64,000 nucleotides of DNA from a virus (Duplodnaviria > Caudoviricetes): positions 1 through 64,000 of IMG/VR virus record IMGVR_UViG_2974623408_000001; one strand, written 5' to 3'. Below are positions 7,661 through 22,244 of this stretch, piece by piece. The notes below the pieces were generated by a model. That model saw only the letters and a list, made by a program, of their open reading frames with translations. It was not told the origin of the DNA and did not search any database. Every line of letters starts with the position of its first letter. The stretch's first letter is position 1. The position numbers and the translations under genes are program-made.

Positions 7661-7912
7661 TCACATCTCTGTCGTTGCTTCACCCCACCCGTTGATGTCT
7701 TTCCCCTCCAGGTGTTTGCACACAACCTTGTCTGCGTTCCATTTCTGAAACAGTCGGACGGATTTCCACCCGCAGACGCAACGTGCTTGGTAGGATGGTC
7801 GTCCGTCTCGTGGGTCCTCCTCGTACGGATGGTAGCTGTCGCGACCGATACCTCTGTGCATGGTCACACGGTGCATCATCTGGTTTCTGTGTAGTAGTGT
7901 CTCTATCACCAT
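7661..7912 (-). CDS. H-CxC-H array paralogue 21
   Basis: MVIETLLHRNQMMH...QARCVCGW-x17-H. Confidence 0.85.
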   Translation of the reverse strand: MVIETLLHRNQMMHRVTMHRGIGRDSYHPYEEDPRDGRPSYQARCVCGWKSVRLFQKWNADKVVCKHLEGKDINGWGEATTEM

Positions 7913-7924
7913 TCCACCGTCATT

Positions 7925-8185
7925 TCATCGTCCCAACACCCTCATCATCTTGCCTTCGAAACTATTGTCCCCACCCTCGGTGTGATTCTTCATGTATAGT
8001 CGGGCAACTCGTTCAACGTAGACGCGTCGTGACCACCAGCCGCACACGCATCTACCCTGGAAGGTTTCTTGACCATCTTCAGGGTCTTCCTGGTACACGT
8101 CATGGCGGCTTCTGCCTAAACCCTGGTGTACGTGACCCTGGTGCATGCTTTTATGACAGTCACGTGTGGTTTGAATCGCCATCAC
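7925..8185 (-). CDS. H-CxC-H array paralogue 20
   Basis: MAIQTTRDCHKSMH...QGRCVCGW...KNH. Confidence 0.85.
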   Translation of the reverse strand: MMAIQTTRDCHKSMHQGHVHQGLGRSRHDVYQEDPEDGQETFQGRCVCGWWSRRVYVERVARLYMKNHTEGGDNSFEGKMMRVLGR

Positions 8186-8235
8186 TCACGCCTCTCACTC
8201 ACGTCTCTCGCTCATCCACTCACCCACTTGCGCCC

Positions 8236-8490
8236 TCATATCCCGACATCCGGCTTACCAGCCAGCTGGCACTTGATGTGCTCTTTCGCGTAACGGTCCG
8301 CAAGCGGGAACAGGTAGAAACGTTTCGACATCCATCCGCACGTGCACCTGGATTGCAAGGTTGTGGTGCGGTCTGTGCGAGCGTCACTGTCTGTCGGTTC
8401 CTTGTACGGGTCACGCGGGTCACGCCCTATCCCTTTGTGCTTTGATATGACGTGCATCGTCGTCACGCATTCTGGTGTTGTCCGAATCAC
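8236..8490 (-). CDS. H-CxC-H array paralogue 19
   Basis: MIRTTPECVTTMH...QSRCTCGW...KEH. Confidence 0.85.
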   Translation of the reverse strand: MIRTTPECVTTMHVISKHKGIGRDPRDPYKEPTDSDARTDRTTTLQSRCTCGWMSKRFYLFPLADRYAKEHIKCQLAGKPDVGI

Positions 8491-8666
8491 GACATCACCA
8501 CCAGCGAGTCATCCGTACGCCAGCAACGGCACCGTTTCACCAGACACCCGTCCGCACCGTGTAAACACCATGCGTGCCCGCAGTCATCACACTGGGGCCA
8601 CCCGGGAGGGCTGCACACGATCCCGTCTGTCTTCTTGTCTGTTCTGTCTACACGCGTCTTGCTCAT
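8487..8666 (-). CDS. 59 aa Cys-rich protein of a different family inside the array
   Basis: hand translation MSKTRVDRTDKKTDGIVCSPPGWPQCDDCGHAWCLHGADGCLVKRCRCWRTDDSLVVMS; GTGA overlap at 8487-8490. Confidence 0.7.
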   Translation of the reverse strand: MSKTRVDRTDKKTDGIVCSPPGWPQCDDCGHAWCLHGADGCLVKRCRCWRTDDSLVVMS

Positions 8667-8707
8667 GTCTTACTCATTCACTGTCACTGTCACTGTCACT
8701 TTCATCC

Positions 8708-8938
8708 TCAGTATCCTGACGACGAGTACGAAAGTCTGTTAGGCATCGGACGCCCGATGTTGTGCTGCATCCATACGTGCCGATTCACCCATTTGAACGC
8801 CGTTCTAGAGCCGTTGAACGTGCACGTCGCACCGCATGTGCACTTTCCCTCGTAGTTGTACAGGTTAATACCGATAGGTATCTTGACGGTCGTGGCGCGG
8901 TGGTATTCGCTGATCTTCTCTGTGGTGGTAATTATCAC
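8708..8938 (-). CDS. H-CxC-H array paralogue 18
   Basis: VIITTTEKISEYH...CTCG...NRH; GTGA overlap. Confidence 0.85.
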   Translation of the reverse strand: MIITTTEKISEYHRATTVKIPIGINLYNYEGKCTCGATCTFNGSRTAFKWVNRHVWMQHNIGRPMPNRLSYSSSGY

Positions 8939-9150
8939 AATAGTCCTATCGGCATGGCACGGTGACTGTTCAGGGTTAGCCAGCGATGTCGTTGTATCCA
9001 TTTGTCCAGGGACTCACTTCTCAAATACCGTCTTGAGGTACCGCAACTGCATGAACCTCTATGCTCGTACACCTTGTAGTGATAATCCCACACCGTTTCC
9101 ACGGTGATCTTGTGCATGGCGTCGACTTTCCGCTCTGTGGTTTCAATCAT
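8935..9150 (-). CDS. H-CxC-H array paralogue 17
   Basis: MIETTERKVDAMH...CSCG...QRH. Confidence 0.85.
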   Translation of the reverse strand: MIETTERKVDAMHKITVETVWDYHYKVYEHRGSCSCGTSRRYLRSESLDKWIQRHRWLTLNSHRAMPIGLL

Positions 9151-9367
9151 GCGCGGTACCGTACCTACTGCCACAGCCGTACGTGGCGCCGTACTTGGTG
9201 TGATTATCCGCCCAGGCGACAGAATCACCCCAGCTGTGGAACTCTTCTACCCTGCCGCACGTGCACGACGCTTCGTAGTATTTTTCCCCGCTGTACAAGG
9301 TGTCACGACCTGTCTTCCACGACACTTGGTGTAGTAACTTGACCTGGCGTTCTGTTGTGACGATCAC
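9143..9367 (-). CDS. H-CxC-H array paralogue 16
   Basis: VIVTTERQVKLLH...CTCG...WADNH. Confidence 0.85.
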   Translation of the reverse strand: MIVTTERQVKLLHQVSWKTGRDTLYSGEKYYEASCTCGRVEEFHSWGDSVAWADNHTKYGATYGCGSRYGTAHD

Positions 9368-9392
9368 TTGTCATGCACCTCTCACGAAACTG

Positions 9393-9596
9393 TCACGCAC
9401 CTCTCAGCGACGGCGGCCTTGGACCCCACTTGTGAATGTCTGCCCATTCTGAGGCGGCTGTAGTCTGTAGAAACCGATCTGTTGCCCCGCACGAGCACAC
9501 AGCACGGTACACCCAGGTGTAGCCGTTGCCTGCGACGTACGCGTCGAACGTCACGGTGTGCATCATGCGCACTTGGTCTATTGTTGTGGTGATCAT
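9393..9596 (-). CDS. H-CxC-H array paralogue 15
   Basis: MITTTIDQVRMMH...CSCG...WADIHKWG; ATGA overlap. Confidence 0.85.
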   Translation of the reverse strand: MITTTIDQVRMMHTVTFDAYVAGNGYTWVYRAVCSCGATDRFLQTTAASEWADIHKWGPRPPSLRGA

Positions 9597-9811
9597 CTGT
9601 GCGCACTCATCCTCAACATTCTTGTCCTTGCCAGCCAACCCCACTTGTGTTCGGCTGCCCAGGCGAGTACGTCTCTCTTACTCAAGTACGCGCCGTACGC
9701 GCCGCACGTACATGTGGCTCGGTTAACCCAGTTGCCTGAGGGGTTGACGAAGGTGTCAAAAGACACAGTGTGCAGGGCGTTGACTGCATTATTTGTATGG
9801 ACGAACATCAT
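9593..9811 (-). CDS. H-CxC-H array paralogue 14
   Basis: MMFVHTNNAVNALH...CTCG...WAAEHKWG; ATGA overlap. Confidence 0.85.
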   Translation of the reverse strand: MMFVHTNNAVNALHTVSFDTFVNPSGNWVNRATCTCGAYGAYLSKRDVLAWAAEHKWGWLARTRMLRMSAHR

Positions 9812-10023
9812 CTACCCGCATCTATCCACCGGAACGGTTGCTGAAGGTGAAAGTCGATCATCCGATTAACATCCGCTGTGCTGTACGCGTAATAGGTTGC
9901 GCCGCACGCGCACCATATCTGATACTCTTCGCCCATATTCTCGTAACCCGGTCCGTTACGGTCTGTGAGTGCACAATCCATGACATGCATGGCTGCCACG
10001 GTGCGTTGTGTGGTGTGAATCAT
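9808..10023 (-). CDS. H-CxC-H array paralogue 13
   Basis: MIHTTQRTVAAMH...CACG...DFH; ATGA overlap. Confidence 0.85.
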   Translation of the reverse strand: MIHTTQRTVAAMHVMDCALTDRNGPGYENMGEEYQIWCACGATYYAYSTADVNRMIDFHLQQPFRWIDAGR

Positions 10024-10226
10024 ACTCGTTGTTCCCACTCTGTGATTATGTGCCGGTGGGCGCGCTGTTTGGCTGAACTTGCTGTGGTGGAAGAAATAGA
10101 CTCCCAACCACATCGGCATTTCGCGGTGTATCGCCGTATCTGCACACCGGTTGCGGTTTCCACAGGATACTCGAACACACGACCCGAATGCAACACTTTG
10201 ACGGTGTCAAACAGTGTGGCGATCAC
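10020..10226 (-). CDS. H-CxC-H array paralogue 12
   Basis: VIATLFDTVKVLH...CRCGW...HRH; GTGA overlap. Confidence 0.85.
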   Translation of the reverse strand: MIATLFDTVKVLHSGRVFEYPVETATGVQIRRYTAKCRCGWESISSTTASSAKQRAHRHIITEWEQRV

Positions 10227-10429
10227 TTTGAACTCTCATCCATCCAGGTTCTCCACAAAGTTTCATGATTCTGCATGGCAAGTTCTGCGCCTCTTCTTGA
10301 GTGGTAACCAGACGTGTACCATCCACATCTACAGGCACCGCTGTACGGCAGACCGTCACCACCGCCTAGGGTTATCTTCAGAGACGTTTTATGGAGCATA
10401 GGGAAGAGCACGACGTATCTTTCAATCAC
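10223..10429 (-). CDS. H-CxC-H array paralogue 11
   Basis: VIERYVVLFPMLH...CRCGW...QNH; GTGA overlap. Confidence 0.85.
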   Translation of the reverse strand: MIERYVVLFPMLHKTSLKITLGGGDGLPYSGACRCGWYTSGYHSRRGAELAMQNHETLWRTWMDESSK

Positions 10430-10626
10430 CAGTCGGCCCTTCCGTGATCACCTGTCTGCACATAGTATTCGTGCATCCATTTCCGGTCTCTCGCGGATTT
10501 GATGTCTGCCAGCCAGCCGGACACACGACCGCATGTGCATCTGTACCTATGTACTGGCGAACTGTCACTGCTTTCGATGCGTGTCTGGTGTACGCTTCTG
10601 GCGTGGTTTTCTAGTTCAATGATCAT
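10426..10626 (-). CDS. H-CxC-H array paralogue 10
   Basis: MIIELENHARSVH...CTCG...WMH. Confidence 0.85.
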   Translation of the reverse strand: MIIELENHARSVHQTRIESSDSSPVHRYRCTCGRVSGWLADIKSARDRKWMHEYYVQTGDHGRADW

Positions 10627-10633
10627 TAGAAGA

Positions 10634-10897
10634 TCACTTCATCTCCCCTACCCATTCGCCCTCTGGTGTACACACAGTGTGAAAATCGCCGCCAACGCGT
10701 GACCCGAGATGTGCGAGAAGCCGGAACTTGGCACTCGGAAGTCGATCCTCCTGGTACCACGGACGTTCGACCTCGGACCGGGATTCGGGATGAATGCACG
10801 GGCACACGAATTCCCAGCCAGGTACGCCTGACCTGTACGCTCGTACCAATCGCGCTGGATGCATGGAGCGTGCACACTGTGCTAGTTCGACGATCAT
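10634..10897 (-). CDS. H-CxC-H array paralogue 9
   Basis: MIVELAQCARSMH...CPC...LAH; ATGA overlap. Confidence 0.8.
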   Translation of the reverse strand: MIVELAQCARSMHPARLVRAYRSGVPGWEFVCPCIHPESRSEVERPWYQEDRLPSAKFRLLAHLGSRVGGDFHTVCTPEGEWVGEMK

Positions 10898-11181
10898 AGA
10901 GGCACTCCCCGTTGAGTGCACGCGGTCACGAAGTATTCGCCTCGTTTTGCGTCGCCGTTGTAGCAATAGGTGAGATCAACTGCAACCAAATGATGAAACA
11001 CAGCTGTTAGATGCACGGCGATACGTTGCTTTGCGTGGGCGAGTGACTGGTGCGCGTATCCTGCATCGTGTACGCCGCACGGGCATTCGATATTCCATTG
11101 ATCGAATCCATGTCTGTCCTGTCCGCAGATAATCTTAGTTTGGTGTATCGCGGCAGCGTGACGCATCAACAGTGTCACCAT
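10894..11181 (-). CDS. H-CxC-H array paralogue 8
   Basis: MVTLLMRHAAAIH...CPCG...AVH; aggag RBS. Confidence 0.8.
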   Translation of the reverse strand: MVTLLMRHAAAIHQTKIICGQDRHGFDQWNIECPCGVHDAGYAHQSLAHAKQRIAVHLTAVFHHLVAVDLTYCYNGDAKRGEYFVTACTQRGVPL

Positions 11182-11357
11182 TGCATTTCTCCTGTTTTCG
11201 CCCAGTGCATATGACGAGATTCTTCCCGTATCACCTCTCTGTGACTTGTGCTGACGTACATGAACTCGCACGAACACTGCACACGGTAGTACGGATGGTC
11301 GAATACGAAATTTGTTCTGTGCATGTCCAGAATGCACACGGGCAACTCGATGAACAC
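11175..11357 (-). CDS. H-CxC-H array paralogue 7
   Basis: VFIELPVCILDMH...CSC...RHMH; TAGTG overlap. Confidence 0.8.
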   Translation of the reverse strand: MFIELPVCILDMHRTNFVFDHPYYRVQCSCEFMYVSTSHREVIREESRHMHWAKTGEMQW

Positions 11358-11626
11358 TAGAGGTCCCTGCCCAACACCTGACGCGCTATTCCGACACTGT
11401 ACAGCGATATCTCTGCCTCACCGTTGCACGCTTTGAAAACCTCACGGATGTGATGGTAACCCCAAGAGTTTTCTGCTTTCTCCTTTGTGACGCTGTCATA
11501 ACCCGCGGAGCCGTTCCAACCACAGGTGCATCGTGCTTGATACGACCTGACTGTCCACGGGTCTGGTACAGATATGATGTTCGGCTGATGAAAGGCGGAC
11601 ACCATCAACGGCAGGACTTGGATCAT
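11357..11626 (-). CDS. H-CxC-H array paralogue 6
   Basis: MIQVLPLMVSAFH...CTCGW...YHH; ATGA overlap. Confidence 0.85.
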   Translation of the reverse strand: MIQVLPLMVSAFHQPNIISVPDPWTVRSYQARCTCGWNGSAGYDSVTKEKAENSWGYHHIREVFKACNGEAEISLYSVGIARQVLGRDL

Positions 11627-11892
11627 CGGACTGGCTTTCGTGTACGCGCGATTCGTTCTTTCGACCGTGTCATCGGACGATTCGGTTCACCGGCCAGAAC
11701 ATAGTTGAGGTGCAGAAAGTGAAACGTCACAGCCTGTCTCTTCGTCACGAAACCGCGTTTACCTTCCCACCCGCACGAACACCATGCGCCCCATTTCATG
11801 TCTGGACGTCCGTATATCCGCTCGTTCGGTTTCAGCTTGCGGGTCAGATCCTGATGTGTCTTCGCGATGAAGTTTTTCGGAGTGTCGATCAT
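11623..11892 (-). CDS. H-CxC-H array paralogue 5
   Basis: MIDTPKNFIAKTH...CSCGW...HFLH; ATGA overlap. Confidence 0.85.
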   Translation of the reverse strand: MIDTPKNFIAKTHQDLTRKLKPNERIYGRPDMKWGAWCSCGWEGKRGFVTKRQAVTFHFLHLNYVLAGEPNRPMTRSKERIARTRKPVR

Positions 11893-12116
11893 GGTTGGTT
11901 TTTCCACCCTTGAAAACAGTATTCGATGTGCAGGTCGCCTAGGTAACGTGCATAGTCTTTCTTTGTCTGCGGTGAGTACGTCCAGCCGCATGAGCAGCGG
12001 GCTTCGTACAGAATCATGGTTCTATGAACACCACGTGAACTGCTGACAGTGGTCACGTGTGTGGCACGTATTCGGTCACACACTCGCATGCTCAAATCTG
12101 TTGTTGTAATGATCAT
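11889..12116 (-). CDS. H-CxC-H array paralogue 4
   Basis: MIITTT...ATH...CSCGW...DLH; ATGA overlap. Confidence 0.85.
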   Translation of the reverse strand: MIITTTDLSMRVCDRIRATHVTTVSSSRGVHRTMILYEARCSCGWTYSPQTKKDYARYLGDLHIEYCFQGWKNQP

Positions 12117-12334
12117 CGTGGCATCCAGGGTTCACCGCGGGTACACCACTCGATGTGCATATTGCAGTACATCTCGCAGCTGACCCTGGCTGTGAACGTT
12201 GCGTATAGATTCCAGCCGCACGAACACACGGGGCGCCATTCCTCGATTTCGGATTCCCACTCAGTTGATGTGCGATGTTCTTCGTTGACCTTCGCGTGCA
12301 CCGAGTGTTTGATCTCGTACGTTGTCTGTATCAT
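12113..12334 (-). CDS. H-CxC-H array paralogue 3
   Basis: MIQTTYEIKHSVH...CSCGW...NMH. Confidence 0.85.
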   Translation of the reverse strand: MIQTTYEIKHSVHAKVNEEHRTSTEWESEIEEWRPVCSCGWNLYATFTARVSCEMYCNMHIEWCTRGEPWMPR

Positions 12335-12385
12335 GTCATGTCGATTCTGTCCAGTCTGTCAGTCTGTCTACCAGTACGTTTGTCG

Positions 12386-12574
12386 TCAGTATGCGTCGCT
12401 GAGTACACCGTTGTGGTGGTTGCGCACCGCTCTGTCCACGTACGTCGTGAACACGGATCGATTCCAGCCACAGCCGCAAACTAATTGCGATATAGCTCGT
12501 CCTCTTTCGCTAATGCCGTGCGTGATCCACACCTTATGCGTGTTTTCGACGTGTTGGACGGTTGTGACGATCAT
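12386..12574 (-). CDS. H-CxC-H array paralogue 2 (leaderless)
   Basis: MIVTTVQHVENTH...CGCGW...RNHH. Confidence 0.85.
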   Translation of the reverse strand: MIVTTVQHVENTHKVWITHGISERGRAISQLVCGCGWNRSVFTTYVDRAVRNHHNGVLSDAY

Positions 12575-12580
12575 GCAGTT

Positions 12581-12609
12581 ACCATATCATACTGTCCTTG
12601 TCACTACAA
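12581..12609 (-). promoter_or_regulatory. internal array promoter
   Basis: TTGTAG-N17(ending TGA)-TATGGT-6 nt-ATG 12574. Confidence 0.65.
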
Positions 12610-12855
12610 CAGTTGACGAACAAACGAGTTCTGCAGGCCGCCATGAAACTCGTTGTTGTGGTCTGCAGCTTCTACCTTTGCCCTGAAATATCGCCAGCTT
12701 GGCGTAGCAAACCAGAAACATGCGCCGCATATCGCGCGGTACTGCACCCTGGATTTCGTGGCTAATGACCGGGAGCGATTGAACGAGTACGTGTGCACAA
12801 CTGCGTGCGCCGGTGACTCCATCGTGGTGGACAGCAGGTCAGTGAGAAAAATCAT
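12604..12855 (-). CDS. H-CxxC-H array paralogue 1
   Basis: MIFLTD...PAH...YRAICGACFW...ADH; ATGA overlap. Confidence 0.8.
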   Translation of the reverse strand: MIFLTDLLSTTMESPAHAVVHTYSFNRSRSLATKSRVQYRAICGACFWFATPSWRYFRAKVEAADHNNEFHGGLQNSFVRQLL

Positions 12856-13277
12856 AGTCTTGTGTATGACGGGCCGTACCGAATGAACCGTTCTTTCCAT
12901 ATTTCTGCTTCACTCGCGGACCACGTAAACGGTGGTGTCACGCGTGCGACGTCGATAGGGTCATGGAACAGCTGGTACGTATACGGCGAGCCGCCGGCTA
13001 GTGACCCCATCAGCTTTTCAAGTGAAACAGATGAGAACAGAGTACTTCGCATACTTTCTGCTTCGGACAGTTCGTCATTCTCGTAGAAACAGTGAATTCT
13101 CGTAGCGCTCATGAACGCCGGGTTGTCGGGTGACATAAGTGTGACGTGATAGATTTTCCACCGATCCACACTGCTGGACGTGAGGTTTCGTTTGAGACGG
13201 GTGTCATTCCTGGCGACCACGCCATTGATCCAATCTGTGTACAGAGTTGGAGCGCAACGATCGTACTGCAGGATCAT
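12852..13277 (-). CDS. hypothetical protein, second gene of the array operon
   Basis: 141 aa; MI..YD and RWKI shared with the 13274-13711 product. Confidence 0.7.
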   Translation of the reverse strand: MILQYDRCAPTLYTDWINGVVARNDTRLKRNLTSSSVDRWKIYHVTLMSPDNPAFMSATRIHCFYENDELSEAESMRSTLFSSVSLEKLMGSLAGGSPYTYQLFHDPIDVARVTPPFTWSASEAEIWKERFIRYGPSYTRL

Positions 13278-13711
13278 GACACCACCGAGGCGAGATACTT
13301 GACGTGTTCGTACTTGCTGACGACACGATCAAAAGCGCCGTCAAAACGAGGAACCAGTTCGCCGTGACCCTCGCACGAACATTCGACTAGCTGCGTGATG
13401 GTGGCACCGCCGGTTGAGTCGAAAAGATGCATGAACGACGCCAACGAGATAGCGCTGACTCGAGTGTCCTGAGTTTGGTCTTTGGCGGATTCGCAGTAGC
13501 AGATGAGAGTGGAATTCTCAACATCTACTTGTGTTCTTTCTGGCCCGACGTTTAGCCATTTGATCTTGAAAGTGATGATCTTCCAGCGTGACTCTTCGAA
13601 GTTACGAAAACCAGGCTGTGGACTCATCACGAGATGGGCGTTACCGCGAAGCACGGTCATGAGAACATGACGTGCTGCTACGTCGTAGCGTTGATCGTAG
13701 GTGTCTATCAT
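13274..13711 (-). CDS. hypothetical protein heading the array (C-terminal CSC...H)
   Basis: near-leaderless start MIDTYDQ 7 nt after the -10 box; ends VECSCEG...YEH. Confidence 0.7.
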   Translation of the reverse strand: MIDTYDQRYDVAARHVLMTVLRGNAHLVMSPQPGFRNFEESRWKIITFKIKWLNVGPERTQVDVENSTLICYCESAKDQTQDTRVSAISLASFMHLFDSTGGATITQLVECSCEGHGELVPRFDGAFDRVVSKYEHVKYLASVVS

Positions 13712-16687: not shown

Positions 16688-16806
16688 ACGAGCTACTACT
16701 GCTGGCTGCGGAACAGTCCAGCAACGAAACCAGCTGGCCGGATGTGATCCTGATGCTCGGATTCTTTGCAATCTGCGCGTTCATGTTGTGGATCGTGCTC
16801 CGATGA
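16684..16806 (+). CDS. 40 aa single-TM micropeptide
   Basis: VNELLLLAAEQSSNETSWPDVILMLGFFAICAFMLWIVLR; GTGA and ATGA overlaps at both ends. Confidence 0.6.
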   Translation: MNELLLLAAEQSSNETSWPDVILMLGFFAICAFMLWIVLR

Positions 16807-17243
16807 CCTTCTACCGCAAACAGGGTGACATGTTCAGCGAGCACGCTGACGCGTACGCCCACGGTGTGAACACGATGGGTCGTATGGGTGCCGGTGTCGC
16901 AAAGATCGTCGCGGACACCTGGCCCGAGTGTCGCGATGCGTACATCGCGATGTGCGCACACGGATTCAACCCGGGTGAAACGTACGCATGGCGATCGGAC
17001 ACCGGTATCTGGGTGTACAACGTGGCCAGCCAGCGCTTTCCGGGACGTGACGCACGTCTGTACTGGTTGAAGGACGGACTTGAGGACATGTACCTACATG
17101 CACGTGGAAACCTCGTGAAGTCCATCTCAATGCCGGTTATCGGGGGAGGTATCGGAGGGCTCGACCCGAACGACTGCATCACCACAATCGAGAACGTCGC
17201 GGCTCAGTACCCCGATGTCACCACCACAGTCTGGGAGTACTGA
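16803..17243 (+). CDS. macro domain ADP-ribose glycohydrolase (DarG/TARG1-like)
   Basis: GDMF...AHGVN..GRMGAGVA...SISMPVIGGGIGGL macro motifs. Confidence 0.85.
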   Translation: MTFYRKQGDMFSEHADAYAHGVNTMGRMGAGVAKIVADTWPECRDAYIAMCAHGFNPGETYAWRSDTGIWVYNVASQRFPGRDARLYWLKDGLEDMYLHARGNLVKSISMPVIGGGIGGLDPNDCITTIENVAAQYPDVTTTVWEY

Positions 17244-19850: not shown

Positions 19851-20066
19851 ATGACCGAAAAAGAACAAGAAGAACTCAAAAAAGTTCTGATGGAGAAGGT
19901 CGGCGATGACAAGGACGCCGCGTTCAAACTGGTTTCGGCTCTCGTGATCGCGCTTTCGAAACGACTCGACTCGATGCAAACGCAACTGCAGGCTATCATC
20001 GAGCGTGTCGAAGAACTCGAGGAGGAAGCTGCTAGTCAACCACGAGGTAAAATCTTCGATGATTGA
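19851..20066 (+). CDS. coiled-coil hypothetical protein
   Basis: ggag RBS; heptad pattern. Confidence 0.6.
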   Translation: MTEKEQEELKKVLMEKVGDDKDAAFKLVSALVIALSKRLDSMQTQLQAIIERVEELEEEAASQPRGKIFDD

Positions 20067-20214
20067 GGTGTTCGACACTAAGATGTGCTGCGCAAAGTGC
20101 CCTAACGTTGCCGCAAAACGAACGAACTTCAATGACGGTAGCGAAGAATGGTATTACTGCGCTCGTCACGCTGAAACTATGTCCATGCATCTTATAGACC
20201 TGGCGGTGAATTGA
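20059..20214 (+). CDS. small CxxC...CxxH protein
   Basis: CAKC...YYCARH. Confidence 0.55.
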   Translation: MIEVFDTKMCCAKCPNVAAKRTNFNDGSEEWYYCARHAETMSMHLIDLAVN

Positions 20215-20510
20215 TGATTGAGGGACTTCCTGATCTCGACGAATGGGCAGCAGTTGATCGAGGCGACAAGATCGAACACATCGCACCTGACATGATGATC
20301 GTCACACCCGCGCCTCGACCTACTTCGATCGATCACAGTTTCATCATCGAGAAGACGCCTCCGTTGAGCGAAGACCACGGCAAAACCTTCTACCACCTGT
20401 GGCAAGCAAGTTGCACCACATGCGGTTGGTGGAGCGAGGCGTGCGATAAAGAACGTGCCAAATCGTGGGGTCACTGGCACCACACGTCGGAGAACCTGCG
20501 ACCAAGCTAA
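20214..20510 (+). CDS. orphan H-CxxC-H array homologue
   Basis: internal MIVTPAPRPTSIDH...WQASCTTCGWWS...AKSWGHWH. Confidence 0.75.
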   Translation: MIEGLPDLDEWAAVDRGDKIEHIAPDMMIVTPAPRPTSIDHSFIIEKTPPLSEDHGKTFYHLWQASCTTCGWWSEACDKERAKSWGHWHHTSENLRPS

Positions 20511-20549: not shown

Positions 20550-22244
20550 ATGGAAAGACAGACATACAAGCCCAGAAAAGGCATCGGCCTGTACATTCCT
20601 CCTGAGGAGGATTTGTCCCTGGCTGACATCGTTGCGCGCCTTCCGGAAAGCGAACGTGAAGAAGCGCTCGCCGACCTGGACATGGATGACCTCGAGTACA
20701 ACTTCAATTTCTGGGGACGTCCCTCACAGCTAGCAGCCGTCAACTCTGACAAGTGGTTGACGGTTTTGCTGTCTGGTCGTGGTTTCGGTAAGACCCGTGT
20801 TTTGTCCCAGGCTATGCACAAGAAGGCCATGGACAATCCAGGATGTCGTATCGCGCTGGTTGGCCGATCTGTTGCCGACGTTCGAGACATTCTTGTAACT
20901 GGTGAATCGGGTTTGTTGAACGTCGTACCACCCAGCGAGAAGCCCGAATACAAACAGACCATGCGCCGTATCATCTGGCCCAACGGCTCAGAGGCGATGA
21001 CGTTCACCGCTGATATTCCAGACCAGTTGCGTGGTCCTCAGTTCCACTTCGCGTTCGGAGACGAGCTGGGTTCCTGGCGTGTAAAAGCCACCGGTACCGG
21101 CATGGTCAACGCGTGGTCACAGCTGCAGATTGCCACACGTCTCGGTGACAATCCACAAATCTTCATCGCAACAACACCACGACGCGTACCGATGATTGTC
21201 GATTGCGTGAAAATGGCTGACTACGAGCCTGATCGCGTTCTTCTCATTCGCGGTTCGACATTCGCTAACCGCCACCTCGGTACCAAATACCGTGAGGCAA
21301 TCATCGGTTTGTACGAGGGAACAACTCTTGGACAACAGGAGCTTGAAGGTGAACTTCTCAGCGACGTTGAGGGCGCGCTTTTGACCCCTGACGTTATTGA
21401 AGATTCACGATTGACAGACCTGGAAGAAACGTTCTGGAAAACGCTTCCTAATCGCATTGTCGGCGTCGACCCTACGGTGTCTGCAACCCCTGGCGACGAG
21501 TGTGGAATCGTCGTAGCTGGAGCCACAGGCGAAAAGAAAATGTACAACAGACGCGCCTATGTTCTCGAGGATGCGTCGTTGCAGGGTCCGCCCGAGGTGT
21601 GGGCTAGACGTGTCGTTGAAATGGCGCGCAAGTACCGTGCTGCTGTCGTAGCCGAGGACAACCAGGGCGGTGAAATGGTGCGTATGGTCATCAACGCCCA
21701 GGACCCGCGCGTGCCTGTCACCCTAGTCAAGTCGAAGGCCGGTAAGTACGCTCGTGCCGAGCCGGTTGCACACGCCTATCAGCAGGGCCGCGTCCACCAC
21801 ATGCGTGAGTTCGACATGCTGGAAGACCAGCTGACTACATGGGTTCCAGACGAGGGCATGAAATCGCCTGACCGTCTTGACGCCGCGGTGCACTGTCTCA
21901 CCGCGCTACTGGTCGTGAAGCCCAAGGAATGGATCGGTGGAGTGTCGATCGCCGGCACAGGCGCACGCCGTCGGATCAACGTCATCAACCATGACCCATA
22001 CCAGCAGATCGTCCCGGGATCGAACGGTCCTGGAAACACACGAGCCAAGATTCTCGAACGACTACGTCCGCTGGACGGATTCAACATCGAAGAATTCGAC
22101 GGCACCGAAGAAGAAACCGAAGAGGAGAAAGAACAATTCAAGCGGCTACGGAAAGCTAACCGCTCTCCGCGTCTGCCTATTCACGCGAGAAACCGTAAGT
22201 ACGATCCGTACGGGGCTCCAAGAATACGCAGGCGACAGGGTTAA
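20550..22244 (+). CDS. terL: terminase large subunit
   Basis: Walker A GRGFGKT, Walker B FGDE, ATTP coupling motif, nuclease VGVDP...SPDRLDA. Confidence 0.95.
   Translation: MERQTYKPRKGIGLYIPPEEDLSLADIVARLPESEREEALADLDMDDLEYNFNFWGRPSQLAAVNSDKWLTVLLSGRGFGKTRVLSQAMHKKAMDNPGCRIALVGRSVADVRDILVTGESGLLNVVPPSEKPEYKQTMRRIIWPNGSEAMTFTADIPDQLRGPQFHFAFGDELGSWRVKATGTGMVNAWSQLQIATRLGDNPQIFIATTPRRVPMIVDCVKMADYEPDRVLLIRGSTFANRHLGTKYREAIIGLYEGTTLGQQELEGELLSDVEGALLTPDVIEDSRLTDLEETFWKTLPNRIVGVDPTVSATPGDECGIVVAGATGEKKMYNRRAYVLEDASLQGPPEVWARRVVEMARKYRAAVVAEDNQGGEMVRMVINAQDPRVPVTLVKSKAGKYARAEPVAHAYQQGRVHHMREFDMLEDQLTTWVPDEGMKSPDRLDAAVHCLTALLVVKPKEWIGGVSIAGTGARRRINVINHDPYQQIVPGSNGPGNTRAKILERLRPLDGFNIEEFDGTEEETEEEKEQFKRLRKANRSPRLPIHARNRKYDPYGAPRIRRRQG

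Follow-up and report, generated by a model that had tools for sequence, protein, structure and literature searches.

A tandem array of 21 divergent small genes in Gordonia phage GodonK: probable expansion of a putative metal-binding domain found in other actinobacterial phages

The stretch of DNA analysed here (the window, 64,000 nucleotides) is from Gordonia phage GodonK, to which it was assigned by a 100 % BFVD match; the GodonK record is 122.6 kb in length and has terminal repeats. Listing of the open reading frames, together with inspection of start codons, placed 24 consecutive genes on the minus strand at 7661-13711, of which 21, encoding proteins of 60-95 aa and tiling 7661-12855, are members of one family and three are unrelated to it. 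Two of the unrelated genes, both without a family match, are the first gene of the leftward block (13274-13711, 145 aa) and its neighbour at the head of the presumed operon (12852-13277, 141 aa); the third (8487-8666) lies inside the array and encodes a Cys-rich protein of 59 aa, the frame of which is conserved in the related phage Phendrix. In the direction of the genes, the family members are m21 (12604-12855, 83 aa), the most upstream and most divergent, in which CxxC replaces CxC; m20 (12386-12574, 62 aa); m19 (12113-12334, 73 aa); m18 (11889-12116, 75 aa), where residue 20 is the first His; m17 (11623-11892, 89 aa), with a very basic tail and a pI of 10.8; m16 (11357-11626, 89 aa); m15 (11175-11357, 60 aa), with the Cys knuckle CSCEF; m14 (10894-11181, 95 aa); m13 (10634-10897, 87 aa), with the knuckle CPCIH and thus without Gly; m12 (10426-10626, 66 aa); m11 (10223-10429, 68 aa); m10 (10020-10226, 68 aa); m9 (9808-10023, 71 aa); m8 (9593-9811, 71-72 aa); m7 (9393-9596, 67 aa); m6 (9143-9367, 74 aa); m5 (8935-9150, 71 aa); m4 (8708-8938, 76 aa); m3 (8236-8490, 84 aa); the hyper-divergent m2 (7925-8185, 86 aa); and m1 (7661-7912, 83 aa), the last gene of the array.

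An initial annotation of this DNA had described 24 small genes joined mostly by ATGA or GTGA stop-start overlaps. Our count agrees: 13 of the 23 junctions are 4-nt overlaps of this kind and three are overlaps of 1, 7 and 8 nt, the other seven being gaps of 7-51 nt. The same annotation had seen no repeated DNA between the genes, and indeed no intergenic repeat element was detected, the only direct repeats in the array being short, in-register coding homologies of 67-88 % identity. Given their tight leftward packing, in which the stop codon of one gene mostly overlaps the start of the next, the 21 members and the three unrelated genes of the block are probably co-expressed from a single polycistronic message, with translational coupling. 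Consensus promoter and terminator scans found no more sites than in shuffled sequence, so this single-operon reading derives from gene packing only. The array is probably expressed early in infection.

When the 21 proteins were aligned with MAFFT, mean column identity was 19 % and exactly four columns were invariant, namely H14, C45, C47 and H67 in m1 numbering. A single H-CxC-H architecture had been proposed for these genes, and the four ligand positions are the sole invariants that they share, with the qualification that CxC is present in 20 members and is replaced in m21 by CxxC (CGAC). The knuckle is followed by Gly in 18 of the 21 members and by Trp in ten; the spacing from the first His to Cys is mostly 19-22 residues, and that from the second Cys to the second His is 18-29 residues, mostly 19-20. 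The first His falls at position 13 of 17 members and at position 14, 15, 20 or 21 of the others, counts that depend on the start codons chosen; the fixed register noted previously is thus upheld, with 17 rather than 16 members showing it. In leave-one-out HMM tests, 20 of the 21 members were recovered with E <= 7.5e-4 and each left-out member ranked first or second among 592 ORFs of the window. The sole ORF to outrank any of them was a true relative on the plus strand (20211-20510), which was the best non-array match in every such test. The most divergent member, m21, was weak in this test (E 0.33) and matched the family outside GodonK in hhalign (probability 85.8 %, E 5e-6). The family resemblance among the 21 genes is therefore not due to chance. 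The plus-strand relative is a 99-aa ORF immediately upstream of the large terminase gene; its C-terminal half is a CxxC variant of the domain (hhalign against family alignment A3, 96.6 %, E 5e-10; match to phrog_25312, E 1e-9). Apart from the ligands and a few core residues, no positions are retained across the paralogues: loops and tails vary freely, pI spans 5.3-10.8 and charge -4 to +13.

A profile of the 21 GodonK members, searched against 1.84 billion representatives at a cut-off of E < 1e-3, retrieved 149 outside protein clusters with the signature H...CxCGW...A...H, in which H, CxCGW, A and H are invariant and the Cys-to-His spacing is 20 in 39 of 45 sequences. Alignment of the GodonK set (A1) with the outside set (A2) gave an hhalign probability of 98.7 % (E 1.7e-16) with the same four invariant columns, and the four ligand residues are invariant over 66 sequences with a mean identity of 12 %. 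By this profile comparison, the GodonK array is a divergent subfamily of a domain widespread in actinophages and actinobacteria. The expansion seen by the initial annotation is thus real, but the scaffold is not peculiar to GodonK. The outside family corresponds to phrog_5419, phrog_23779 and phrog_4656, whose function entry in PHROG is 'unknown'; 25 of 45 outside relatives match phrog_5419 and 19 match phrog_23779, and within the array phrog_5419 matches seven of the 21 members weakly (E 4e-4 to 8e-3) and phrog_23779 matches two. Members of these families, such as Mycobacterium phage Fruitloop gp39 and Wheeler gp95, have the same His, CxCGW knuckle, helix Ala and second-His spacing as the array and likewise lie in non-structural phage regions; unlike the array, they occur as one copy per genome, usually without the N-terminal helix or with the domain at the C terminus of a protein of approximately 113 aa. 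At least 104 phage records carry one copy each, 102 of them mycobacteriophages.

Outside GodonK the domain occurs as single-domain proteins of 50-70 aa, as proteins with two to four tandem domains and as fusions to HTH and AAA_24, the last two exemplified by P0057 (HTH_17) and P0050 (AAA_24). Relatives are located among small non-structural genes of phages and mobile elements, with Xis-type HTH, methylase and recombinase genes as neighbours; in one temperate-phage contig a gene encoding the domain alone overlaps an HTH_17 gene at the latter's end. In Micromonosporaceae and Nonomuraea a conserved protein of 158-176 aa consists of the domain followed by a C-terminal HTH (Pfam HTH matches below threshold), an architecture that recalls HicB. 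The domain is covered neither by a Pfam family nor by a solved structure, and we found no paper on it. No array member matched DUF7848 (PF25232) or DUF6349 (PF19876), to which outside relatives gave only 14-22 bits against gathering cut-offs of 24.5 and 25, and none of the 21 matched a PADLOC anti-phage defence model at E <= 0.01. Nor did we find a paper on the array, in keeping with the earlier view that no phage system of this layout had been described. The array is therefore real and previously undescribed, and its domain occurs singly in more than 100 other actinobacterial phages.

The AlphaFold (AF2) models of m1 and of the minimal domain had pLDDT values of 83.5 and 90.2, respectively, so that the shared fold that the initial annotation had proposed to look for was found as one confident prediction for the family. 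The predicted core, of approximately 45 residues, has the order beta1-beta2-beta3-alpha, with one His just before beta1, the CxC(G)(W) knuckle at the beta2/beta3 turn and the second His in the C-terminal helix approximately 20 residues further on; the GodonK type would add a 12-residue N-terminal helix (alpha-beta-beta-beta-alpha). In the model topology an antiparallel hairpin places the His before beta1 beside the end of beta2, and the case for the four residues converging derives from this topology only. Most likely, these residues hold one structural zinc ion. The models had no significant PDB match (best VIA Z 5.7; Foldseek E >= 0.87), and no structural match scored high enough to tell true relatedness from a commonly occurring arrangement. 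The best neighbour was HVO_2922 (Z 5.7, rmsd 2.1, 50 residues); dsRBD structures gave Z 4-5, HicB-like chains Z of approximately 4, and the HicB-like TTHA0281 a Foldseek TM of 0.60. The dsRBD, HicB N-terminal and DUF1508 (YegP/HVO_2922) folds have in common with the array the order (alpha-)beta-beta-beta-alpha, but they lack the metal site and any sequence similarity, and with scores that are not significant this is resemblance only.

C2H2, SWIM (CxCxnCxH) and CSL/DPH3 (CxCG...CxxC) domains are, like the array proteins, small modules in which a beta-hairpin knuckle bears a Cys pair and the following helix contributes a ligand; the CxCG knuckle of the array resembles that of SWIM and CSL, and in having two Cys and two His as its putative ligands the array corresponds to C2H2 fingers. 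Unlike all three, the array has the order His...CxC...His, with the first His approximately 20 residues upstream and a single helix ligand. A SWIM assignment was rejected, as the array helix lacks the CxH pair and PF04434 matched outside relatives only, below threshold (E 0.0076 and 0.14). The C2H2 pattern (Cx2-4C...Hx3-5H) was likewise rejected, one array His lying before beta1 and one in the helix, with Pfam C2H2 at noise level. Pfam matches to SWIM, Zn_ribbon_CSL and similar families were all sub-threshold and sporadic, and we do not assign the array to any of these families.

Comparison with Phendrix, which is 94.9 % identical to GodonK across the array, revealed gain and loss of whole units. 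Phendrix has 20 family members; m8 and m9 are absent from it, and its gp29 is additional, sharing less than 30 % identity with every GodonK member, while m2 and its counterpart gp21 are only 57 % identical in amino acid sequence. Pooled over orthologues, pN/pS was 0.27, and differences at the three codon positions numbered 25, 22 and 49. In this orthologue comparison the array genes are under purifying and not positive selection, and this pN/pS identifies them as real coding genes. Paralogues are 12-40 % identical, and adjacent ones are more alike than in random orderings (26.4 versus 21.8 % identity, p < 1e-4), which fits tandem duplication. In a metagenome, a 932-bp contig contains four overlapping genes of the GodonK-type subfamily, and a relative only approximately 50 % identical keeps the array architecture. 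The alignment and the paralogue comparison support the earlier suggestion that one scaffold was amplified some 20-fold and diversified with its ligands, spacing and tight packing retained. Very probably, then, the array is a lineage-specific expansion, by unit-wise tandem duplication, of a putative metal-binding domain widely found singly in actinobacteriophages and in mobile elements of actinobacteria.

That these genes are evolutionary debris, i.e. duplicated small ORFs drifting without function, or non-genes, might be suggested by the extreme divergence of the members and by the fact that two of them, as well as the Cys-rich gene, are unannotated in Phendrix. This is already largely refuted by the low pN/pS with its third-position excess, by frames intact in both phages, by ligand residues that survive at a mean identity of 12 % and by the retention of array architecture in the relative of approximately 50 % identity, and we give it almost no credence. 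As conservation is confined to the ligands and a few core residues, and charge, loops and tails vary, we propose that each paralogue presents the same zinc-stabilised scaffold to a different macromolecular target, of host or phage, acting during a non-structural, probably early, phase of infection, and that the array would be a diversified binder repertoire, turning over as entire genes are gained and lost. Taken whole, as tandem expansion, zinc scaffold and co-expressed diversified binders, this account is in our judgement a little better than evenly poised; that the repertoire binds proteins for host takeover or counter-defence is plausible but somewhat short of even. A more specific version, in which zinc-stabilised mini-binders on a beta-beta-beta-alpha scaffold like that of HicB-N or dsRBD each neutralise a different host factor, e.g. 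defence toxins or effectors, and whole gene units are gained, lost and replaced over evolution, is doubtful; if true, the single-copy relatives in more than 100 mycobacteriophages would be individual inhibitors of the same kind. Purifying selection on orthologues is not in itself a sign of an arms race, and the recurrent HTH fusion or adjacency and the AAA_24 fusion would be just as compatible with a nucleic-acid or regulatory role.

Such a role, in which the array supplies many DNA or RNA binders, each specific for sequence or structure, that would reprogram host or phage gene expression through a nucleic-acid-binding or regulator-associated module with three sheet strands and a helix, of AP2/ERF, integrase N-terminal or dsRBD type, draws on the independent P0057 and P0050 fusions, the overlap with an HTH_17 gene, the Micromonosporaceae and Nonomuraea protein, the tandem-domain proteins, which recall zinc-finger or AP2 arrays, the weak dsRBD/AP2 fold resemblance (Z 3.5-4.9) and a pI above 7.8 in 13 of the 21 members. 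However, the pI of six members is acidic to near neutral (5.3-6.9), the 21-member alignment has no conserved basic surface residues besides the ligands, the structural matches fall below relatedness even at their best, and next to an HTH partner the domain could equally be the part that does not bind DNA and instead senses or binds protein, as in HicB; we regard this role as somewhat unlikely. It is improbable that the proteins are interchangeable subunits or adaptors docking on one partner, or on each other, through the N-terminal helix to give alternative forms of one complex. The segment before the first His is predicted helical, is invariant at 12 residues in 17 of 21 members and three of the four metagenome-array genes and conserves the pattern M-I/V-x-T/L...hydrophobic...H, and co-translation from one operon would suit assembly; but the fixed N-terminal 13-mer to which docking had been ascribed turns out to be a subfamily addition outside the core, most outside relatives starting 2-3 residues before the first His. 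The helix would therefore be dispensable for the basic role of the domain. In the models it belongs to the fold and is not a free peptide, and no candidate partner is apparent, the two larger head genes having no family match. Ligation by two Cys and two His also occurs in Rieske-type and some other Fe-S centres, and the site might accordingly hold something other than structural zinc, e.g. iron or a Rieske-like 2Fe-2S cluster, in small redox or sensor proteins. Against this, motif order and spacing differ from those of Rieske proteins (CxH...CxxH), the one Pfam hit to an Fe-S family was sub-threshold noise (zf-CDGSH, E 0.076), structural zinc sites typically have the form seen here, a CxCG knuckle in a beta-beta-beta-alpha unit of 45 residues, and there is no obvious rationale for 21 redox proteins in one phage; we regard this alternative as highly improbable.

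Large lytic phages carry blocks of small host-takeover or accessory genes, e.g. the SPO1 host-takeover module and the early regions of T4 and T5. Like the array, these blocks are long and tightly packed, comprise small non-structural genes, lie near a genome end and are transcribed in the direction away from structural genes, but they consist mostly of unrelated genes, whereas 21 of the 24 genes described here are paralogues of one putative metal-binding scaffold.

The minus strand of the Gordonia phage GodonK genome, between positions 7661 and 13711, carries 24 small genes in succession, as established by ORF listing and start-codon inspection. Judged from their sequences, 21 of these (7661-12855; m1, the last gene, to m21, the most upstream) appear to be paralogues that arose by lineage-specific expansion of a small, putatively zinc-binding phage domain. 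When the 21 products were aligned, mean column identity was 19 % and exactly four columns were invariant, namely His, Cys, Cys and His. The initial annotation had described such a minus-strand array of H-CxC-H mini-proteins, and its existence was confirmed both by these invariant columns and by leave-one-out HMM tests, in which each left-out member ranked first or second among 592 ORFs of the window and 20 of the 21 were recovered at E ≤ 7.5e-4. The sole ORF ever to outrank a member (20211-20510, plus strand) is itself a relative of the family. Member m21 was weak in this test (E 0.33) but aligned over the whole domain with family proteins from outside the GodonK type (hhalign probability 85.8 %, E 5e-6). 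Details of the motif required some adjustment. The fixed register of the first His stood, but with the starts chosen in our analysis it is residue 13 in 17 of the 21 members and not in 16; the conserved Cys pair, or knuckle, is CxC in 20 members but CxxC in m21; and the second His, earlier placed usually 17-22 residues (28 in one copy) beyond the knuckle strand, lies 18-29 residues, mostly 19-20, after the second Cys. The knuckle is followed by Gly in 18 members and by Trp in 10. Net charge of the members spans -4 to +13 and pI 5.3 to 10.8, while the first loop is 15-36 residues long and the C-terminal tail 9-38.

The array members are genuine protein-coding genes under purifying selection. 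Across 12 GodonK/Phendrix orthologue pairs (Phendrix being another Gordonia phage), pooled pN/pS was 0.27, differences at codon positions 1, 2 and 3 numbered 25, 22 and 49, and every frame was intact, which together support this conclusion. The genes had been described as mostly joined by stop-start overlaps, and indeed 13 of the 23 junctions are ATGA/GTGA overlaps, with three other overlaps and seven gaps of 7-51 nt. The reported lack of repeated DNA between genes was likewise borne out, as no repeated intergenic DNA was found in the array and the few short direct repeats all correspond to in-register coding homology. Scans for consensus promoters and terminators returned sites no more commonly than in shuffled sequences, and RNA folding downstream of the array was unremarkable (z 0.86). 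A look-up of sequencing runs for the array listed none, either of RNA or of DNA. The three remaining genes of the block had no family match. One encodes a Cys-rich protein of 59 aa with eight Cys and two His (8487-8666, minus strand); it overlaps the start of m3 by 4 nt, has no PHROG match and is kept in frame in Phendrix (about 8686-8852 of that record), though unannotated there. The other two, of 141 and 145 aa, lie on the same strand at the head of the block and showed no significant similarity to one another (BLASTP, E 1.7).

The order of the paralogues is informative as to their origin. Identity between adjacent members is 26.4 %, compared with 21.8 ± 0.9 % in random order, a value reached in none of 10,000 permutations, and sub-clusters are formed by m1-m3, m4-m5, m6-m8, m12-m14 and m16-m19. 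This greater likeness of neighbours is the signature of tandem duplication, and since the highest identity between any two paralogues is 40 %, the duplications must be old. Copy number and selection in related phages had been proposed as a check and proved instructive: besides the pN/pS value, whole units were found to differ between GodonK and Phendrix (genus Godonkavirus), its sole near relative in the phage collection, which is 94.9 % identical over the array. Members m8 and m9 are missing from Phendrix, and Phendrix gp29 is an extra member with <30 % identity to every GodonK member. At m2 (7925-8185, minus strand) the Phendrix counterpart (8096-8380) is only 57 % identical in protein (74 % in DNA along part of its length), whereas the flanking DNA is 94-97 % identical; either a local replacement has occurred here or the position is hyper-variable. 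The array still gains and loses whole units, and this turnover, together with the hyper-divergence at m2, shows that the repertoire is not static. A 932-bp metagenome contig (SRR15706881, 1-932) carries four overlapping genes, all of the GodonK-type subfamily and about 50 % identical to their nearest Phendrix counterpart; the 12-residue helix that precedes the first His is present here too. This gene run indicates that the array architecture is also present in a third, more distant phage. Conservation of the array extends to at least three related phages.

The impression given initially, that the scaffold is unique to this array, did not hold, as it is widespread in single copy. The HMM search that had been recommended, conducted with a family profile against 1.84 billion cluster representatives, gave 149 clusters at E < 1e-3, and after GodonK-type sequences had been taken out three outside forms could be distinguished: single-domain proteins of 50-70 aa in which only two or three residues precede the first His, chains of two to four tandem domain copies, and proteins in which the domain is fused to another, such as an AAA_24 ATPase or HTH_17. 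In an alignment of 45 single-domain outsiders the four residues were again invariant, Gly-Trp almost always followed the knuckle, the helix carried a near-invariant Ala and the Cys-to-His spacing was exactly 20 in 39 of the 45; the profile of this alignment matched that of the GodonK members with 98.7 % probability (hhalign, E 1.7e-16). These outsiders were assigned to phrog_5419 (25/45), phrog_23779 (19/45) and phrog_4656 (11/45), all of 'unknown function'. A tblastn search with one outsider identified a single copy in each of 104 phage records (mycobacteriophages in 102 cases). Among them are Fruitloop gp39, whose gene is flanked by those for integrase and Xis, and Wheeler gp95, encoded near the right genome end; both are 113-aa proteins that carry the domain C-terminally. 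Metagenomic relatives sit in small-gene regions of phages or mobile elements, one overlapping the end of an HTH_17 gene and others near methylases and serine recombinases. In bacterial genomes, a degenerate DNA pattern scan followed by the family HMM detected mostly chance matches, with the true domain in 26 of 120 loci. Among these, Micromonosporaceae and Nonomuraea encode a conserved chromosomal protein of about 158-176 aa in which the domain is followed by a C-terminal HTH (plus strand of Micromonosporaceae loci L016, 2753-3229, and L092, 728-1249, and about a dozen other Micromonosporaceae loci), the Pfam HTH matches being below threshold. No model of Pfam, NCBIfam or PADLOC matched either the members or the outside relatives above threshold; the Pfam matches to DUF7848 and DUF6349 were weak, partial and below it. 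A tblastn search of plasmids gave no match, and word-indexed homologue searches added almost no homologues.

Structure prediction gave confident folds, but the Foldseek comparison suggested earlier yielded no significant PDB match. The two AlphaFold2 models, built with family alignments, were of m1 (pLDDT 83.5; helix 6-13, strands 16-22 and 39-45, helix 57-68), which matches a BFVD entry from GodonK with 100 % identity, and of a minimal 54-aa outsider (pLDDT 90.2; strands 5-9, 18-22 and 27-31, helix 34-50). The first His lies just before β1, the first Cys at the end of β2, the second Cys in the β2/β3 turn and the second His within the helix. Because the start of β1 adjoins the end of β2 in an antiparallel hairpin, the four residues are predicted to be plausibly able to converge. 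Searches of the PDB with both models (Foldseek and VIA-align) detected no significant solved relative; the top neighbour, HVO_2922 (DUF1508; Z 5.7), and the next, many dsRBDs, HicB-like and AP2 domains (Z 4-5), were all below significance. When the PDB was searched by sequence with a profile of 66 family sequences, nothing matched even at E 10, and BFVD matches were confined to other uncharacterised actinophage proteins.

The four ligand-type residues are invariant across all 66 sequences at a mean identity of 12 %, and this invariance, together with the CxCG knuckle and the tiny size of the unit, is best read as a putative structural metal site, most likely for zinc. Our current working hypothesis is that a single stable scaffold presents many differing surfaces, the paralogues being produced jointly by a leftward operon with tight coupling, which diverges from the structural genes and lies in the left arm, a region of small genes, of a genome with terminal redundancy; candidate targets would be nucleic acids, proteins of the host or components of its defences. 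The variation in charge, pI, loop and tail favours such a repertoire of binders, which we consider plausible as the function of the array, although the orthologue comparisons show purifying selection without an obvious arms-race signal. The main alternative, a nucleic-acid or regulatory role of the domain, draws on the recurrent HTH, AAA_24 and tandem-repeat architectures, and the HicB-like pairing of the fold with a C-terminal HTH offers a lead, and only that, towards a protein-neutralising role.

The domain family is already catalogued yet uncharacterised; what is new is the 21-gene tandem expansion of the scaffold with a subfamily-specific N-terminal helix. The initial annotation recognised no described system with this layout, and our literature searches (GodonK, Phendrix, DUF7848, CxCGW and tandem paralogue arrays in Gordonia phages) agreed in finding nothing relevant to domain or array. 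NormanBulbieJr gp39, a 48-aa cytotoxic protein encoded near an integrase (bioRxiv 10.64898/2025.12.12.693979), was considered as a possible characterised homologue and ruled out, since the motif is wholly missing from it. GodonK devotes about 4 % of its 122-kb genome (122,563 bp in the GodonK record, with direct terminal repeats) to 21 versions of one 45-residue scaffold. Though unstudied, this scaffold is present in >100 mycobacteriophages, and also in the chromosomes and mobile elements of actinobacteria. Should the members bind zinc and have one target per copy, the array would constitute a natural library for working out the function of the family; it could bring to light host targets, both in Gordonia and in Mycobacterium, and would offer a binding scaffold that is minimal and evolvable. 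An annotation blind spot is revealed as well: since no two paralogues exceed 40 % identity, methods that group genes into families by identity may have overlooked the array. Every annotated member, like every gene of the Phendrix array region, is designated 'hypothetical protein'. In the Phendrix GenBank record the orthologues of m11 and m20 are left unannotated (9993-10193 and 12399-12587), Phendrix gene 37 being called in a different frame at the latter site.

Searching GodonK with the profile of the 21 members recovered all of them and nothing further at E < 0.01. The orphan relative at 20211-20510 (plus strand; 99 aa) has a knuckle of the CxxC type and is extended at its N-terminus by an acidic stretch. 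It matches the family by hhalign (96.6 %, E 5e-10) and also phrog_25312, and is directly followed by the large terminase gene (20550-22244); with it, family copies per GodonK genome number 22. Adjoining it, a 69-aa ORF (20005-20214, plus strand) with a CCxxC ... C..H pattern and no PHROG match possibly encodes another small metal-binding protein. Outside the window, the whole-genome record contains a weak, sub-threshold Pfam DUF7848 match (108196-108333, plus strand; E 0.006). The window ORF at 16803-17243 (plus strand) has a Phendrix counterpart (gene 50) annotated as an ADP-ribosyltransferase.
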